A DNA stretch of 44,678 bases from a virus (lineage: Duplodnaviria; Caudoviricetes): positions 1-44,678 of IMG/VR virus record IMGVR_UViG_3300044878_000164, one strand, 5' to 3'. The notes below the pieces were generated by a model that saw only the letters and a list, made by a program, of their open reading frames with translations, was not told the DNA's origin and made no database searches. This document shows positions 17,401-31,515 of this stretch, piece by piece (position 1 is the first letter of the stretch; every line of letters begins with the position of its first letter). A program made the translations under genes and the position numbers.

Positions 17401-17495
17401 GGGCGGCGCGGTGGACGTTCCGCCGTCGTCTCGCCTGCTTCTTCGGTGAGCAGCTGATCCCCGGCCGGCACTACCAGTTCCGGGTGAAGGCATGA
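17397..17495 (+). CDS. Possible 32-aa microprotein
   Basis: Exactly fills the gap, with GTGA and ATGA overlaps. Confidence 0.4.
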   Translation: MRAARWTFRRRLACFFGEQLIPGRHYQFRVKA

Positions 17496-17995
17496 GCGGG
17501 GCTATGGGATCTCACCAGTCCGCGGCCATGAAGTCGGACGTATGGCTCACACCGCCGCACATCGTGGAAGCGTTAGGCCCGTTCGACCTCGACCCGTGCT
17601 CCCCCATCGGACGGCCGTGGGACACCGCGGCCAAGCACTACACGGCGGAGGATGACGGTCTGTCCTTCGAGTGGGAGGGACGCGTGTGGATGAACCCGCC
17701 GTACGGCGCGCAGGCCGCAACCTGGCTGGAACGGCTGGCCAAGCACAACGACGGCATCGCGCTCGTGTTCGCCCGGACCGAGACGCGCATGTTCTTTGAC
17801 TGGGTATGGCCATACGCCTCTGCCCTGCTGTTCATCGAAGGACGGCTGCACTTCCATCGTCCGGACGGCACCCGTGCGAAGGCCAACAGTGGCGCCCCGT
17901 CCGTCCTCATCGCCTACGGGGACGCCGCCGCCCGCCGACTCATCAACTCCGCCATTGCCGGCGCCCGCATCGACCTGCGGAGGATGGCCGCATGA
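17492..17995 (+). CDS. Phage DNA N6-adenine methyltransferase (Dam-like)
   Basis: DVWLTPP, FDLDPC, DGL..W, VWMNPPY, ARTET, GRLHF. Confidence 0.88.
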   Translation: MSGAMGSHQSAAMKSDVWLTPPHIVEALGPFDLDPCSPIGRPWDTAAKHYTAEDDGLSFEWEGRVWMNPPYGAQAATWLERLAKHNDGIALVFARTETRMFFDWVWPYASALLFIEGRLHFHRPDGTRAKANSGAPSVLIAYGDAAARRLINSAIAGARIDLRRMAA

Positions 17996-19053: not shown

Positions 19054-19818
19054 ATGACATGTGGGGGATGCACTGGGGAAGCTAACGTCAAACTCTGCCC
19101 GTCCTGCCGGGACGTCCTGATCCAGGACCTCGCCGAGACAGACAGCATCATCGGGGACCTGCGCACCACCATGGCCCGGCAAGACAAAGGCGCAGACAGC
19201 ATCGGCGGCGGGGGCCCTTCCGGCTCCCGCCCACCGATCAACCTCGACGCCCTCGACCGGTACGAGCAGCTCCGCGAAGTCCTCACCGGCTGGGCCACCC
19301 AACTCGAAGGCCGGGCGTACCTCGTCCTCGTCCGCACCGAAGACGTCGCCTCCTACCTGCTGGCCAACATCGAGAAGGTCCGCACCGCCGAATGGGCGTA
19401 CGACCTCCTCGACGAGCTGCGGGACGCGATGAACGCCGCACGCATGGCCACGGACCGGGCCGCCGACCGGATCAGCCTGGGCATGTGCGGGGAAGCAGTC
19501 GAGGGGATCGTCTGCACCGACACCGTCACAGCGATCACCGGCGCCGCCTACGGCCGCTGCCGAACCTGCGGGACCAGCATCAACGTCAAGGCCTACCAGC
19601 TCACCCGCATCAGCGCCGCATGGCACGTCCGCGGGAACCTCCCCGAAATCCTCCGGGCACTCAAAGCCCACGGATCGGTCAACATCCCCCTGGAGCGGGC
19701 AAAGAAGTGGGTGCAGCGCGGGAAGCTCATCCCCGGTGTGGACGGGAAGTTCTCCCCCGCCGAGATCCTCGACCACCACCGGGCGACGAAGCAGGGCCAG
19801 GCGGAACTGGCAGCGTGA
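19054..19818 (+). CDS. Zinc-finger/HTH protein, putative late-gene regulator
   Basis: CGGC..LCPSC, LGMC...C...CRTCG, C-terminal AKKWVQRGKL wHTH; last gene before the late promoter. Confidence 0.65.
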   Translation: MTCGGCTGEANVKLCPSCRDVLIQDLAETDSIIGDLRTTMARQDKGADSIGGGGPSGSRPPINLDALDRYEQLREVLTGWATQLEGRAYLVLVRTEDVASYLLANIEKVRTAEWAYDLLDELRDAMNAARMATDRAADRISLGMCGEAVEGIVCTDTVTAITGAAYGRCRTCGTSINVKAYQLTRISAAWHVRGNLPEILRALKAHGSVNIPLERAKKWVQRGKLIPGVDGKFSPAEILDHHRATKQGQAELAA

Positions 19819-19846
19819 CACGTTACCGAGGATTGGGGAGAAATGG

Positions 19847-19875
19847 TTGACTTTCCCTAATCTTGTCCCTAAGAT
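19847..19875 (+). promoter_or_regulatory. Near-consensus sigmaA promoter (putative late promoter)
   Basis: TTGACT-17 nt-TAAGAT. Confidence 0.8.
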
Positions 19876-19924
19876 GTTCTTAGAGTGCGAGAAGTGGCTG
19901 AGACCCCACCCGCGCACACGAACT

Positions 19925-19969
19925 TGAAGCCCCGCCAGTGTCCCCCCAGGCCGGCGGGGCTTCACTTTT
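19925..19969 (+). terminator. Intrinsic terminator or attenuator just downstream of the late promoter
   Basis: 12-bp perfect stem TGAAGCCCCGCC/GGCGGGGCTTCA followed by CTTTT. Confidence 0.7.
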
Positions 19970-19972
19970 CCA

Positions 19973-20257
19973 ACCATGAGGGCGCCGCTACCGCCCGGAT
20001 GGTCATAGATAGGAACCGACCCCCAGGAGGTCACTATCTGCCGCGCTGGCTTACGCGCACGCCGCTCGCTGGGAAGCGCCGGCACCGACTCCCGCGTGAC
20101 GGCGGGCCAAGACCGTCACTCCGTCGGGCCCGGGAGGACTGCAGAACCTCCCGGGTCTGGCAACAAGGACGTACCCTGCTGAGCGGAACACGCAGGCAGG
20201 GGAACAGCGGCCGTAGAACTCATGCCGGTAAACAGCGAGGCCGGACGCAACCGCTCA
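19973..20257 (+). ncRNA. Putative structured non-coding RNA (hairpin series plus possible pseudoknot)
   Basis: Back-to-back stems at 19973-20003, 20007-20039, 20061-20083, 20085-20127, 20128-20156, 20174-20201 and 20208-20243; loop TGAGCGG (20180-86) is complementary to CCGCTCA (20251-57); no credible ORF. Confidence 0.5.
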
Positions 20258-20333
20258 GGGCGAGTGAGACAAATGGGTAAGTCAACGTGTCCAGAGCGTC
20301 ACGGGATTGCGGGTTCGACTCCCGCCTCGCCCA
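20258..20333 (+). tRNA. tRNA-like element with non-canonical anticodon arm (possibly Trp-CCA-derived)
   Basis: Acceptor GGGCGAG/CTCGCCC-A; D arm GAC-AAATGGGTAA-GTC; T arm GCGGG-TTCGACT-CCCGC; anticodon arm CGTG-TCCAGAGCGT-CACG (10-nt loop). Confidence 0.6.
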
Positions 20334-20386
20334 CGGCGGCCCCATGCCGCTCCCATGAGTAAGACCGCCGGACTATTCACCCGGCA

Positions 20387-20439
20387 GGACTGTATGGCCT
20401 GGAGGTTTCCCCTCCGCCGGTTCGATCCCGGCCAGTCCA
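20387..20439 (+). ncRNA. Minimal tRNA-like element lacking a D arm
   Basis: GGACTG/CAGTCC-A acceptor-like stem, hairpin GGAGG-TTTCC-CCTCC, canonical T arm GCCGG-TTCGATC-CCGGC. Confidence 0.5.
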
Positions 20440-20549
20440 CTGACGGGGAAAGCGTATCGACCAACCATCGAGGCAACGCGATCCAGCGAGTACCCGTCCA
20501 CCCATCGACCCATTGACCCAATGCACGTTGAGAGGCTGACGGGGACCCC

Positions 20550-21149
20550 ATGCAATGCAAGGCGACGAAGCGGTCTGGTGATCGGTGTGGGAATCCGCCG
20601 ATCAAGGGTGCGACCGTGTGCCGGATGCATGGTGGGAAGGCGCCGCAGGTTGTGGCGGCGACTGCCCGGCGTAGGGCTGAGGCCGCGGCTCGGGAGCAGA
20701 TGGAACGCGCCGTGGTCACGTTGGGTCTGCCGATCGATGTGGATCCGGGTAAGGCGCTGCTAGACGAGATCCACTGGACGGCCGGCCATGTCGCGTGGCT
20801 CCGCTCCAAGGTGCAGGAGCTCGAAGGCGACGAACTCGTCTGGGGCAAGGTCCTCCACCGTGAAGGCGTTGGCCCGGAAGGGCCCGTGGATGTAAGTGAC
20901 CACAAGTCGGCCCCGAACACCTGGTACCAGCTCTACATGGCCGAGCGGGAACACCTCGCGAAGGTCTGCTCGCTCGCCTTGAAGGCGGGCATCGAGGAGC
21001 GGAAGGTCAAGCTGGCCGAGTCCCAGGGCCTGCTCGTCGCCGATGTGATCCGCCGAATCCTCGGCGCGCTCGGGCTTACCCCTGCCCAGCAGTTGCTCGT
21101 GCCTGAGATCGTGCCCCGTGAGCTGCGCGCCCTCGCCGCCGGAGACTGA
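20550..21149 (+). CDS. terS: Terminase small subunit (HGGxSTG-type N-terminus)
   Basis: CKATKRSGDRC...VCRMHGGKAP; upstream of TerL. Confidence 0.75.
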   Translation: MQCKATKRSGDRCGNPPIKGATVCRMHGGKAPQVVAATARRRAEAAAREQMERAVVTLGLPIDVDPGKALLDEIHWTAGHVAWLRSKVQELEGDELVWGKVLHREGVGPEGPVDVSDHKSAPNTWYQLYMAEREHLAKVCSLALKAGIEERKVKLAESQGLLVADVIRRILGALGLTPAQQLLVPEIVPRELRALAAGD

Positions 21150-21657: not shown

Positions 21658-23208
21658 GTGAGCGTGGACATGTGGGAAGCCGCTGCCCGCATGTTCGAGC
21701 CGCCCCCGCCCGAACCTGACCGGCCCCAGTGGGACTCCCCTGGCGACCTCGCCAAAGCCGTTGACCCCTCCACTATCCAGACCCCCGCGCTTGACCTCAT
21801 CGACCAGGCGTTGATGGACGTCGAGAACGGCCTCTGCGACCGGCTCATCATCTCCATGCCACCGCAGGAGGGGAAGAGCACCCGTGTGACGAAGGTCGGG
21901 CCGCTGTGGTTCCTGACCCGCAACCCGGAACGCCGCATCGCCGTCGTATCGTACTCCGCCGGGCTCGCGCTCACCTTCGGGCGGGACATCCGGAAGTTCA
22001 TTACGGACAACCAAGGCCAGGAAGGCACCCTCGACCTTGGCCTGCGGATCAGCCCCGACAACGGGGCGGCGTCCGAATGGACCCTGGACAAGCACAAGGG
22101 CGGGGTGAAGGCTGTTGGCCTCACCGGCGGCCTGACCGGTAAGCCCGCCGACATCCTGTTCATCGACGACCCCGTGTCGAACCGTGAACAGGCCGAATCC
22201 CCAACCTTCCGGGAACGGGCCAAGAACTTCTGGCGCTCCGTCGGCTCCACCCGCCTCGCACCCGGCGCGCCCGTGATCCTGATCCTCACCCGCTGGCACG
22301 TCGACGACATGGCCGGCTTCCTGCTCTCCCAGCCCGACAAGGCCCGGTGGCGGGTCATCAACATCCCCGCCCAAGCGAACCACGACCCCGACGAGGGCGA
22401 GACGGACCCGCTGGGCCGCGAACCCGGCGAGTGGATGGTCTCCGCCCGGACCAACGAGAAGACCGGCCAGTCCCGCACCCCTGCCGAGTGGGAGCAGATC
22501 CGGATCCAAGCCGGACCCCGCGACTTCTCCGCCCTCTACCAAGGCTCACCGAACCCGGAGACGGGCAACGTGTTCCCGAAGGAATGGGTGCGCTACGACC
22601 AGCCGCTGTGGATCGAACAGCCCGACGGCTCACGCCGCGTCCCGGGCATCGGCCGCGACGACCACGAGCTGATCCAGTCGTGGGACCTCACGTTCAAGGA
22701 CAAGCCCACATCGGACTTTGTCGTCGGGCAGGTCTGGCTCCGGGTAGGCGTGCAGGCCTACCTGCTCGACATGGTCCGGGCCCGGCTGAACTTCAACGCC
22801 TCCGAAGAGGCCGTGCTGGCGATGTCCGCGAAGTGGCCGCAGGCGGTGGCGAAGTTCATCGAGGACAAAGCCAACGGGCCGGCCGTGATCAACTCCCTCC
22901 AGAAACGCCTGGTGGGTCTGATCCCGATCGAACCCGAAGGTTCCAAGTTCGCCCGCGCCTCCGCCGTGTCGCCGCTGGCACACGCCGGCAACATCATCTT
23001 GCCGACGGCCGAGCTGCTCCCGAACGTGGAGGAGCTAATCGAGGAAGCGAAAGCTTTCCCGAACGGCGCGCACGACGACACCATCGACGCCATGTCGCAG
23101 GGCACCAACCGGCTCCTGCTCATGCCGCTCACCGCGGCGGATGACCTCGTCGAACCGGACGAATACGAGGAAGCGGACCTTCGCGGGTACGCCATCACCC
23201 CTTACTGA
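21658..23208 (+). CDS. terL: Terminase large subunit
   Basis: Walker A MPPQEGKS, Walker B LFIDDP, TRWH, nuclease SWDLT, IEDKANG, FPNGAHDDTIDA. Confidence 0.95.
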   Translation: MSVDMWEAAARMFEPPPPEPDRPQWDSPGDLAKAVDPSTIQTPALDLIDQALMDVENGLCDRLIISMPPQEGKSTRVTKVGPLWFLTRNPERRIAVVSYSAGLALTFGRDIRKFITDNQGQEGTLDLGLRISPDNGAASEWTLDKHKGGVKAVGLTGGLTGKPADILFIDDPVSNREQAESPTFRERAKNFWRSVGSTRLAPGAPVILILTRWHVDDMAGFLLSQPDKARWRVINIPAQANHDPDEGETDPLGREPGEWMVSARTNEKTGQSRTPAEWEQIRIQAGPRDFSALYQGSPNPETGNVFPKEWVRYDQPLWIEQPDGSRRVPGIGRDDHELIQSWDLTFKDKPTSDFVVGQVWLRVGVQAYLLDMVRARLNFNASEEAVLAMSAKWPQAVAKFIEDKANGPAVINSLQKRLVGLIPIEPEGSKFARASAVSPLAHAGNIILPTAELLPNVEELIEEAKAFPNGAHDDTIDAMSQGTNRLLLMPLTAADDLVEPDEYEEADLRGYAITPY

Positions 23209-27989: not shown

Positions 27990-29072
27990 ATGACCGTTCT
28001 CAACACCGGCGACATTCTCGCCAAAGAAGGCTTCCGGGTCGCCCCGTCCGTCCGCGAGCGCATGCTCGAAGCCGCGAAGCTCTTCAACGAAGGCGTCGCG
28101 GGCAAGTCCGCGGCCGCCGAGTACCGCATGAAGGAAGCGTTCTCCACCTCGGACTTCCCGAAGCTCCTCGGTGCAGCGTTCCAGGTCGAGGCCCGGGACC
28201 GCTACCAGGACACGACCCCGGAGTGGCAGGGCATCGCCGCCGAGCGCAAGGTGATCGACTTCCGCCCCGCGAAGGTCATCGACGTCAACGGCGGTCGCGA
28301 CGCGTTCGAAGACGTCTCCGAAGGCGAAGAGTACAAGGGCCGGTCCCTGACCGAGGCCGAGTTCACGTTCTCCGCCGGCAAGACCGGTAACAGCTTCGGC
28401 CTCACGTTCGAGGCACGGAAGAACAACCAGTACTACCAGCTGCTGGACTTCCCCGGCCGCTTCGGCACGTCCGCACGCGCCACCGAGGACGCCAAGGTCT
28501 TCGGCACGTTCGTGGACGCCGCAGGCCCCAAGGCGGCGTTCTTCTCGGTCATCGGGAACAAGACGCTCACCGCGGACAACCTGCTCGCCGCGTACAAGAC
28601 CGTCGTGGCCCGCAAGGACGCCGACGGCATCCCGGTGAACTTCGGCGGCCGTCCGCTCACCCTGCTCGTGCCCCCGGCGCTGGTGTTCGAGGCCGAGGCC
28701 ATCGTCAACGAGCCGACCGTGTCCAACGGCGGCACGTCGACGAAGAAGAACCCGCTGTTCGGCAAGTTCACCGTGGTGTCCTCGTGGCGCCTGGCCGTCA
28801 TTGACCAGTCCGCGAACGCCAACACCACGTGGTACCTGCTGCCCCCGAAGGACTCGGACGCCGCGTCCTTGGGCAAGGTCACCATGGTCGGCGAAGAGAC
28901 CGTGGACATCCGCGTCAAGCGCGACCAGGGCGAACGCCCCGACGGCGGCGCGATCGGCATCGAAGAGGGGTCGTTCAACGACGACACCATCTGGTTCCGC
29001 GGCCGCCACATCACCGGCGGCGCGAAGCTCGACACCACGGGCGCTTACGCGTCCACCGGCACCACGGCCTAA
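27990..29072 (+). CDS. Major capsid protein
   Basis: STSDFP.LL, LLVPPAL, WYLL, F..D.I.FRGRH motifs of Mu gpT-like capsids; position. Confidence 0.88.
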   Translation: MTVLNTGDILAKEGFRVAPSVRERMLEAAKLFNEGVAGKSAAAEYRMKEAFSTSDFPKLLGAAFQVEARDRYQDTTPEWQGIAAERKVIDFRPAKVIDVNGGRDAFEDVSEGEEYKGRSLTEAEFTFSAGKTGNSFGLTFEARKNNQYYQLLDFPGRFGTSARATEDAKVFGTFVDAAGPKAAFFSVIGNKTLTADNLLAAYKTVVARKDADGIPVNFGGRPLTLLVPPALVFEAEAIVNEPTVSNGGTSTKKNPLFGKFTVVSSWRLAVIDQSANANTTWYLLPPKDSDAASLGKVTMVGEETVDIRVKRDQGERPDGGAIGIEEGSFNDDTIWFRGRHITGGAKLDTTGAYASTGTTA

Positions 29073-29083
29073 ACAGTGGACCC

Positions 29084-29114
29084 GGTGCCCGGCTGACCAG
29101 CTCAGCCGGGCACC
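29084..29114. terminator. Hairpin after the capsid gene (terminator or stability element)
   Basis: GGTGCCCGGCTG-ACCAGCT-CAGCCGGGCACC; no U-tract. Confidence 0.55.
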
Positions 29115-29140
29115 ACCCCCAACACTTCAGGAGGCGCACC

Positions 29141-29497
29141 GTGGCCGATTACACCACCCCCACCGGCCAGGTCCGGCTCCACACAGCAGACCTCGACGAC
29201 GCCAACCCTGTTGTCTCGGACGAGATCATCAACGGCTACCTCACCATGCATAGCGGGGACGTGCTGCTGGCCTCCGCCGACGTCCTCGACGCCGTCGCCA
29301 CCACGGAGCTGCTGCTGGCGAAGAAGATCCGCACCCAGGACCTGTCCACCGACGGGCCCGCGGTCGCCGCCGAGCTGCGGAAGAAAGCCGCCGAGCTTCG
29401 GACCCGCGCCTATGACGCGTCCGGCGCCGGCGCGTGGTTCGACGTCGTCGGATTCGAACCGTACGGGCACCTCGAAGGCGTGGAGTACCGGGCATGA
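29141..29497 (+). CDS. Head-to-tail adaptor
   Basis: YTTPTGQVRL..AD...SDE.I..YL; follows the capsid gene. Confidence 0.75.
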   Translation: MADYTTPTGQVRLHTADLDDANPVVSDEIINGYLTMHSGDVLLASADVLDAVATTELLLAKKIRTQDLSTDGPAVAAELRKKAAELRTRAYDASGAGAWFDVVGFEPYGHLEGVEYRA

Positions 29498-30711: not shown

Positions 30712-30906
30712 ATGGCAGATGACGGATTCGTCACCGCGGTCGGCCCGGACGGCAAGAAACGCCGGGTCCCCAAGCACTACCTCGACAACCCGGCATTCGG
30801 GTACAGACTCCCGCCCTCCACACGGGTCCGGGAACCGGCCACTCCGGCCACAGTACGAGCAACCGAACCGGCCCGGCCGGAGAAAAAGAAGGAGGTTAGC
30901 GAGTGA
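30712..30906 (+). CDS. Small hypothetical protein
   Basis: AGGAG RBS; GKKRRVPKHYLD. Confidence 0.6.
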   Translation: MADDGFVTAVGPDGKKRRVPKHYLDNPAFGYRLPPSTRVREPATPATVRATEPARPEKKKEVSE

Positions 30907-31421
30907 AATCACTGGCTGACGGCAAGAAGAAAATCACCCTGCTGACCGAGGCTCCCGTCAACGAGGAAGCCCCCACCGCGACCGAGCTGAACGCGGGCGA
31001 GGACATCAGCTGCAACGTGCTGGACTCCGACTTCAACTGGACCAACACCGACAGCGCAACCTTCGACGAGAAGCCCGCCTGCGCCAAGGGCCAGGTGCTC
31101 GCCCTCGGGGCAAGCAACTACGACCTCGCCGCCACGTTCATCCGGGAATACCTGGAGTCCGGCGGCACTATCGGCGCGGCTGACATCGCCGGCCTCGACG
31201 CCGGCTATCAGGCGGTCAAAACCAAGGGCAGCGTCGTGTGGATTTACGTCCGCGAAACGGCCAAGGACTCCGACGAGGACTGGGCCGCAGCCGACGAAAT
31301 CTACCTGGGCGGCAAGGTCCAGTCGGATGCACCGGCCCGCGTGAACAACGACGGCAACATCAAGCGGCGCATCAAGTTCCTGCCGCAGCGCATGTTCGAG
31401 GACATCGCCGTAGCCGCGTAA
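30903..31421 (+). CDS. Major tail (tube) protein
   Basis: APTATELNAGEDISC motif; precedes the chaperones. Confidence 0.85.
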   Translation: MKSLADGKKKITLLTEAPVNEEAPTATELNAGEDISCNVLDSDFNWTNTDSATFDEKPACAKGQVLALGASNYDLAATFIREYLESGGTIGAADIAGLDAGYQAVKTKGSVVWIYVRETAKDSDEDWAAADEIYLGGKVQSDAPARVNNDGNIKRRIKFLPQRMFEDIAVAA

Positions 31422-31428
31422 CAAGGCT

Positions 31429-31466
31429 GCCGGCCGGGTGGTTTTCCAAGGTTCCACCCGGCCGGC
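31429..31466. terminator. Hairpin after the major tail gene
   Basis: GCCGGCCGGGTGG...CCACCCGGCCGGC, 13-bp stem. Confidence 0.55.
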
Positions 31467-31515
31467 GTTCCACCCCCAACCTTGCCCCACACGTTCAAAG
31501 ACCTTGGAGGTCCCC

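Follow-up and report, generated by a model that had tools for sequence, protein, structure and literature searches.

Exchangeable RNA modules and tRNA-like elements between a putative late promoter and the terminase genes of a temperate Arthrobacter-type phage

The gap and its setting

What is carried by the 731 nt (19819-20549) that separate the genes at 19818 and 20550 in a phage genome whose genes mostly overlap? The window, i.e. the whole stretch of DNA analysed here, is a virus record of 44,678 nt that carries integrase, terminase large subunit, portal and tail genes in a PHROG profile search, and the phage is a temperate soil phage of the Arthrobacter type. Every one of the 34 phage records that match the gap by BLAST is an Arthrobacter phage, which makes Arthrobacter or a close relative the probable host. 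The gap is flanked by a 254-aa phrog_908 protein upstream and by a 199-aa protein in small-terminase position downstream (Table 1). It had been described as a non-coding cassette of structured RNA that would form either a single multi-domain RNA or several small RNAs, in a genome where most genes overlap their neighbours. The latter point is borne out, as 30 of the 47 plus-strand junctions in a hand-picked, incomplete gene list overlap or are at most 10 nt apart.

The view that the gap holds no credible ORF also stands, 19876-20549 being non-coding by codon GC content, PHROG search and the ORF lengths of relatives. Its sole long ORF (19885-20280, 131 aa, GTG start) has codon-position GC values of 0.68/0.64/0.67, i.e. 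no periodicity, compared with a GC3 of 0.81-0.90 in five real genes; it has no PHROG match, and its equivalents in the five relatives examined end after 14, 14, 40, 14 and 38 codons. Coding by this ORF or by five others, on both strands, was rejected: those on the plus strand lack codon periodicity, and a minus-strand ORF with some periodicity is mostly the mirror image of the upstream gene. Folding energy is less informative. The gap folds better than its shuffles (z of -4.45 in one run, -3.7 to -3.9 in another), but scores below -4 were also obtained for 2 others among 20 windows of this size from the same genome, so that z alone is weak evidence; with coding windows reaching -4 and -7, it was rejected as proof of structured RNA. 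The coding windows 30801-31474 and 28601-29274, within head/tail genes, gave z of -7.1 and -4.2 (10 shuffles each), and perfect 13-bp inverted repeats at 29084-29114 and 31429-31466, which resemble terminators, may not account for them. Elsewhere in the window, a DNA methyltransferase gene (phrog_111) lies at 17492-17995, and a search near the integrase for a T-arm-like sequence as attachment site found none.

A near-consensus promoter had been placed at the start of the gap, and TTGACT-17-TAAGAT is indeed found there (1 found versus 0.2 expected), with a -10-like hexamer seen by eye at the equivalent place in relatives. The inverted repeat over its -35 box might be an upstream terminator or an operator; the relatives L008 and L009 have a different hairpin at that place. 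The 254-aa protein matches phrog_908 at 1e-31 and, weakly, phrog_1568 ('DNA binding protein') at 7e-4. Among the same-position genes of GenBank Arthrobacter phages, 10/11 match its profile (E<=2.5e-16), and several carry a helix-turn-helix annotation. No antiterminator match was found for it in Pfam or PHROG. Its predicted fold (pLDDT 80, pTM 0.50) had no Foldseek match at E<=0.001; the best Z, 8.5, was to a four-helix bundle, and residues 2-138 matched generic helical bundles only. As the predicted fold matched nothing informative, the regulator role is one that we infer.

Behind the promoter, module P may work as DNA or as nascent RNA. It is followed by hairpin A, the strongest of the gap (-27.8 kcal/mol). 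A hairpin with a T-run lies within about 150 nt of the promoter in 12/22 promoter regions, and the window is not among them: hairpin A occupies the site of the intrinsic terminator of many relatives, the full U tract is absent, and no canonical terminator was found in the gap. This layout of putative regulator gene, promoter and early hairpin looks like lambda Q/PR'/tR'. As a separate observation, 6 bases in the loop of hairpin A (19938-19944) are complementary to the small-terminase gene's ribosome-binding region (20537-20545), and a similar complementarity is present in L009 and L110 and absent in L008.

Table 1. Features of the gap and of its flanks (positions in the window)
Feature	Position	Strand	Description	Basis
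Conserved protein, 254 aa, phrog_908	19054..19818	+	Cys-rich; putative late-transcription regulator (role inferred)	
Inverted repeat, 13 bp	19829..19864	+	overlaps -35 box; possible upstream terminator or operator	
Sigma-70-type promoter	19847..19875	+	putative late promoter	pattern count; relatives by eye
Module P	19884..19916	+	promoter-proximal conserved element, weak fold (-6.8)	
Module A	19925..19964	+	strong hairpin, C6 loop, short U tract only	
Module B	19973..20003	+	hairpin with internal loop	7 distinct sequences
Module C	20007..20083	+	stem P1, H-type pseudoknot, GNRA-capped hairpin	
Module D0	20088..20122	+	short conserved element, seen solely in front of D	4 sequences
Module D	20119..20168	+	hairpin of about 14 bp, palindromic loop hexamer 20139-20144	
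Module E-F	20171..20254	+	tandem-GA stem, then outer stem enclosing hairpin and crossing contact	
Degenerate tRNA-Trp(CCA)	20258..20334	+		ARAGORN, Rfam
Module G	20334..20385	+	two short hairpins around conserved single-stranded stretch	
Mini-tRNA, 53 nt	20387..20439	+	acceptor of 6 bp, a single hairpin and a T arm; D arm lacking	
Module H	20440..20501	+	outer stem, GAA/AGUA internal loop, inner stem	
Module I	20499..20545	+	weak hairpin ending at ribosome-binding site	window and L015
Putative terminase small subunit, 199 aa, phrog_3678	20550..21149	+		by position; PHROG search
Terminase large subunit	21658-23208			PHROG search

Modules, their covariation and their order

Profile and pattern searches delimited P, A, B, C, D0, D, E-F, the tRNA, G, the mini-tRNA, H and I; the gap holds about ten modules, which range from 35 to 90 nt. 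Every one of the ten stem segments named in the original prediction folds locally, although boundaries and pairings had to be corrected. The inventory of stems was real but had overlooked the hairpin at 19925-19964 and both pseudoknot-type contacts; the stem at 20174-20257 is structured but consists of two domains; the 20120-20127 part of a nested stem at 20085-20127 pairs downstream, inside module D; and the single helix at 20334-20370 has to be given up, since homologues favour two short hairpins at 20334-20386. The GNRA-loop hairpin at 20061-20083 is present as the capped hairpin of module C, whose pseudoknot pairs 20040-42 with 20048-50 next to a stem of 20043-46 with 20055-58. In module E-F, the tandem GA is flanked by GUA/GAA and the crossing contact joins 20219-21 to 20237-39. 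The internal loop of module H resembles the loop-E motif, and module I travels with the small-terminase gene (window and L015).

Compensatory changes among homologues were found in C, E-F, D and H, while G covaries weakly. Copies of C were accepted at E<1e-8 only and parsed by their flanking anchors alone. The three pseudoknot pairs are intact in 31/31 distinct copies (24 CCC/GGG, 4 GCC/GGC, 2 CGC/GCG and 1 CGG/CCG), a diversity that only about three version changes account for. When the pseudoknot bases were left free, the scan returned 80 loci with 67 distinct parses, and the pairs were present in 7/7 intact modules, 5 of them on new contigs, versus 3/60 chance matches. Double changes affect 11/21 pairs of C (score 0.199 versus 0.103 shuffled, 0/500; 29 of the 31 copies). 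For E-F, they were seen at 8/21 pairs on a plain alignment of 14 sequences and at 9/21 on a model-fitted alignment of 16, which leans to the model (0.404 versus 0.150 shuffled, 0/500); in the crossing contact, which lies outside the model, the third pair is kept in 14/15 sequences with five pair types and the middle position is G-A in 5. Compensatory changes were also found at 8/14 pairs of D (9 sequences), at 4/6 inner pairs of H (11 sequences) and at 1/10 pairs of G (5 sequences). Because the copies come from related phages, these counts overstate the independent events, and relatedness alone can beat the shuffle controls. A strand test comparing G-U with A-C gave no signal for C (23 to 22) and a weak one for E-F (24 to 12). 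Since the crossing pairs covary, they cannot arise from inverted repeats in double-stranded DNA. Judged by these changes, C, D, E-F and H give a minimum of four RNA motifs with good support that Rfam 15 lacks, and two of them, C and E-F, have pseudoknot-type contacts.

Relatives were taken from 19 annotated GenBank phage regions, from viral and metagenome contigs and from bacterial genomes; loci from pattern scans were mostly chance, and only those matching module profiles were retained. Dozens of phages and prophages carry these modules, singly or in shuffled order. By BLAST, 0/34 matching phage records cover 80% of the gap (best 24%, in two pieces), and the order of modules varies over the 33 cassettes compared. 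In the window C comes before D, and in L008 and L050 D comes before B and C; D precedes E-F in the window and follows it in L015; E-F precedes H in the window and comes after it in L075, L095 and L102. E-F is placed directly ahead of a gene in Cole, QuinnAvery, Elesar and Gusanita. Moreover, module borders are where contigs from four DNA metagenome runs are joined (20003 to 20119, 20083 to 20344, 20169 to 20344, 20261 to 20329, 20388 to 20437), and one metagenome contig jumps back from 20170 to 19992, which amounts to an order reversal; the window itself may stem from one of these runs. Module C sits 2.3 kb into the operon in L014, the cassettes of L009, L015 and L110 have none, and both C and E-F are also found without a nearby tRNA. 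Natural subsets of the modules exist in the cultured phages Faja, MidnightRain, Richie, BrayBeast, Cole and MargaretKali, whose host is harmless.

The proposal of one multi-domain RNA of the GOLLD/ROOL type is not supported: coverage is low (0/34 at 80%), relatives show reversed order, and the top long-range helix in the global fold, 20064-20077 with 20478-20491, clashes with a covarying local hairpin. The other proposal, several small RNAs delimited by tRNA-like elements, fits: there is covariation within modules, their order is shuffled, they are also found alone, and they directly adjoin tRNA-like ends. That they are conserved RNA folds which have been shuffled is very probable.

In bacterial genomes, the DNA query matched 18 of 401 family-level genomes. 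The 10 bacterial loci that were read comprise 4 true modules in phage-like surroundings (L242, L243, L244, L248), 4 host tRNA-Leu arms and 2 chance matches. Model C matched 3/17 and 1/151 genomes (L273 and L274 were left out of inspection), model E-F matched 0/17, and of 3 loci from a genome scan anchored on the protein, one was useful.

Several observations on relatives can be added. Modules missing from the window are present in L001 (2250-2310), L004, L047, L260, L261 and L270. Module K, not in the window, begins and ends with the same motifs as E-F, and hairpin J, also not in the window, is followed by a tRNA-like element in 6/6 real copies. An apparent H-type pseudoknot was seen by eye just ahead of module D in L261 (1427-1480), L262 (1343-1400) and L006 (2147-2190); its second stem is compensated in MargaretKali, and it also trips a loose HDV-like descriptor. 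In L276 (410-600), module H follows a tRNA and precedes a terminator, and a capsid-scaffold-like gene lies downstream; modules therefore also occur deeper in late operons. At 1130-2400 of L268 (Gordonia phage Rabbitrun), a cluster of tRNAs separated by long structured spacers lies beside an annotated RNA-binding protein and matches a cassette from L055.

tRNA-like elements and a proposed processing pathway

The gap could not be assigned to a known RNA family beforehand, and the Rfam scan indeed gave tRNA as its only credible match. GOLLD and ROOL, both of which we take to be included in Rfam 15, had no match in the gap at gathering threshold or E<=10 and none in 20 related loci at E<=1. These 20 loci gave tRNA-clan matches and sub-threshold matches on tRNA-like elements only; Plastid-ycf2 and tmRNA matches, which were below threshold and on tRNA-like elements, were rejected.

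Both tRNA-like elements had been recognised beforehand. The first, placed at 20258-20333, is a tRNA-Trp(CCA) by ARAGORN, and at 20258-20334 it reaches 39.5 bits versus a threshold of 29 for the Rfam tRNA model in E-value mode; the fast gathering scan missed it. Its acceptor and T arms are good, and its D and anticodon stems are weak: the anticodon stem has an A-C mismatch and a G-U, positions 32 and 73 are G and A, and the CCA end is not encoded. Trp tRNA identity involves a 5-bp anticodon stem, a pyrimidine at 32 and G73, and the structure drawing of this element showed no intact anticodon arm with Trp identity. Given the weak stem, G32 and A73, charging with Trp is doubtful. The second element, identified by hand as a D-armless mini-tRNA, scores 15.4 bits to Rfam tRNA, and no cloverleaf with a D arm was found in it.

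To compare cassettes, we used a detector that demands an acceptor plus T helix of 11-12 bp; it is biased to such shapes, missed several elements seen by eye and, since it requires both arms, cannot show that they are always kept. It returned, from 33 cassettes, 31 tRNA-like elements with lengths of 48-84 nt, among which 9 do not exceed 64 nt. The base after the discriminator is C in 31/31, with a small bonus given by the detector for an 'AC' 3' flank, and CCA is encoded in 3. The elements range from near-canonical tRNAs (Rfam 48-62 bits), which in some cassettes may simply decode, through forms with enlarged anticodon loops to D-armless minis; several are annotated 'tRNA-OTHER' or 'Undet' in GenBank. 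Four tRNA-Leu(CAA)-like genes (L015 287-360, L095 816-888, L050 1196-1268, L026 1169-1241) are 73-74 nt long with a short variable loop; Leu tRNAs usually have a long variable arm.

The borders of G and H coincide with the ends of these elements. H begins at the base right after the discriminator in 13/13 copies and in the 2/2 real new copies found with the H pattern alone (15/15; 3 of 5 new loci lacked the 3' half and were dropped), behind at least nine different elements by eye. G does so in 4/4 copies plus one more (5/5). What follows the other modules is more varied: after C there is a tRNA-like element within 8 nt in 15/32, a ribosome-binding site and gene in 8, D0 in 3 and other sequence in 6, and after E-F a gene in 10/14 and a tRNA-like element in 3. 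As C and E-F occur without a nearby tRNA, tRNA cutting cannot be required for them everywhere.

We therefore propose, with a probability of about 55%, that the gap is an array of roughly ten independently folding modules and two tRNA-like elements, exchanged as units among Arthrobacter phages, likely transcribed from the late promoter and likely cut, at the tRNA-like elements, into small and stable RNAs by the host's tRNA-processing enzymes. Transcription would start near 19882, hairpin A would halt part of it, much as a true terminator seems to do in many relatives, and the 254-aa protein would switch on or permit read-through late in infection. Both tRNA-like elements, whose acceptor and T arms would be kept while the decoding arms decay, would then be excised by RNase P at their 5' side and, at their 3' side, by RNase Z or by 3' trimming, leaving B-C-D0-D-EF, G and an H-capped packaging mRNA. 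Taken together, this transcription control and this cutting seem rather probable to us. Far more speculative, and on the doubtful side, is a role of the products: the compact folds might protect the newly made RNA ends against nucleases, with a higher output of late genes as the result, and both the freed pieces and the tRNA shells may act as sponges for host proteins that bind RNA or attack tRNA.

A bolder version of this array can be put forward tentatively. Temperate actinophages might possess a mix-and-match toolkit of ten or more undescribed folds, inherited like accessory genes, in which tRNA shells serve purely as cut signals and one or more of the folds would be a self-cleaving ribozyme of a new kind, a bacterial exonuclease-blocking pseudoknot or a counter-defence factor made of RNA. 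Modules C, D, E-F and H are each of a size that suits direct biochemistry. The array also offers a way to explain why Arthrobacter phage annotations contain odd 'tRNA-OTHER/Undet' calls, and it makes testable an old question, the role of small RNAs from phage tRNA regions.

Alternative explanations and known systems

HK022 put and the Bacillus EAR element are nascent-RNA elements that promote read-through, and the modules might likewise act in cis on transcription of the late operon, with the tRNAs as passengers. The position of the cassette right behind the late promoter would suit such a role, as would the hairpin and T-run near the promoter in 12/22 regions with C next in line, or 2.3 kb into the operon in L014. 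However, C is located after the terminator and not before it, several cassettes (L009, L015, L110) do without C, and the constant start of G and H at a tRNA 3' end would be left unexplained, so that we find this account unlikely.

A second possibility, which we consider improbable, is that some modules, among H, G, E-F and C, belong to new classes of self-cleaving ribozyme and process the tRNA ends in the manner of theta ribozymes. H and G occupy the position reported for theta ribozymes, the tRNA 3' end (PMC10879173), and the compact folds, pseudoknots and conserved internal loops would be in keeping with catalysis. Nevertheless, no Rfam ribozyme matched in the window or in 20 related loci, H starts with C-U and not with the G1 of HDV-like ribozymes, and no hammerhead core was found in the window. 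Our own loose, uncalibrated descriptor of a nested double pseudoknot with G1 and a catalytic C in J4/2 was negative in the window and at every G and H start; matches of the loose descriptor in 12/33 cassettes were treated as chance.

To a similarly small degree, the freed RNAs could be primarily trans regulators or decoys, with C-rich loops binding to ribosome-binding sites rich in G, in the way of 6C RNA, and tRNA shells titrating anticodon nucleases, a reading that is compatible with the modular array rather than exclusive of it. In 19.8 kb of cassettes there are 37 occurrences of CCCCCA versus 4 of its complement, and the remaining 43.9 kb of the window has 18, although these counts are not independent; inspection by eye places the motif in the loops of hairpin A, terminators, module C and tRNA-like arms. 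6C RNA is reported to work through C-rich loops (PMC6486639), but its two adjacent C-rich stem-loops had no Rfam match in the window and 20 loci, where only single C-rich loops were seen. Phage tRNAs are reported to counter tRNA-cutting defences (PMC11555353); this published counter-defence, however, supplies functional tRNA, which is beyond D-armless elements.

A single large RNA, or a self-assembling cage like GOLLD or ROOL, is very improbable. Size and neighbourhood are similar (10.1101/2024.12.08.627333), and the loop of D exists in two palindromic versions with 9 and 9 copies, a kind of change taken in the same source as a sign of intermolecular kissing; yet the D listing is restricted to palindrome-bearing copies and a single switch could yield the split, while full-length homologues and a conserved long-range helix were not seen, and order is reversed and modules occur solo. 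That the region is a decaying tRNA cluster with DNA-level sites (operator, pac) and incidental hairpins can hardly be correct: the genome ends of several relatives lie near it and low z occurs in coding windows too, but crossing pairs covary, GNRA loops and T loops are retained, and the C pseudoknot results largely rule it out.

The modular array can be compared with several described systems, of which T4 RNAC/RNAD, the Pleft RNAs of L5 and theta ribozymes come closest. In lambda and Stx phages, the late leader holds Q, PR', tR', 6S RNA and tRNAs ahead of the late genes. The gap appears similar in its succession of putative regulator gene, putative late promoter, early terminator-like site and accessory RNAs or tRNAs; it may differ in its upstream protein, for which profile and fold searches gave no Q-like match, and it differs in its cargo of many RNA folds. 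GOLLD and ROOL are also ncRNAs of several hundred bases found near tRNAs in phages and prophages, with pseudoknots and kissing loops (10.1101/2024.12.08.627333), but each is described there as a single colinear fold, whereas the gap is a shuffled mosaic (24% best coverage) without an Rfam match to them. Theta ribozymes share the start at the 3' end of phage tRNAs of many types; those described are HDV-like and come from gut Bacteroidota/Bacillota phages (PMC10879173), while G and H fail the HDV-like descriptor. UG27 ncRNA arrays are prophage arrays of structured RNA with gain and loss of units (10.64898/2026.09.22.753630), but according to that account they repeat one fold that templates a reverse transcriptase; the units of the gap are different folds, and no reverse transcriptase was found among 14 window proteins scanned.

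Among actinophages, the closest likeness is Pleft of L5/D29, an ORF-free region of about 500 nt behind a promoter (PMC5712189). The L5 ncRNA of about 500 nt is very abundant, is processed to 100-400-nt species and is toxic when cloned; that promoter is early, these RNAs share their 5' end, and the accessible part of the account describes no tRNA-like elements or modules. The gap had no BLAST match to any mycobacteriophage. Highly transcribed non-coding regions are also reported for Rhodococcus phage WC1 (PMC10986025). The accessible part of PMC12628072 gives tRNA counts only, and no account of these module cassettes was found in the literature searched. Fremin 2023 lists 10,006 viral candidate RNAs (PMC10690425); five module motif strings were absent from its searchable supplement files, which leave out the alignment archives and one table, and single modules may be present in these alignments as unnamed candidates.

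In bacteriophage T4, RNAC and RNAD are small RNAs with no known role from a phage tRNA region (PMC3014915), compared here by description and Rfam scan only. They are two fixed RNAs accompanied by working tRNAs in a lytic coliphage, whereas the gap combines about ten exchangeable motif families with mostly degenerate tRNAs in the late leader of a temperate phage. The cassette is a real feature and, as we read it, a new variety of the small RNAs of phage tRNA regions, with several motif families that are undescribed.
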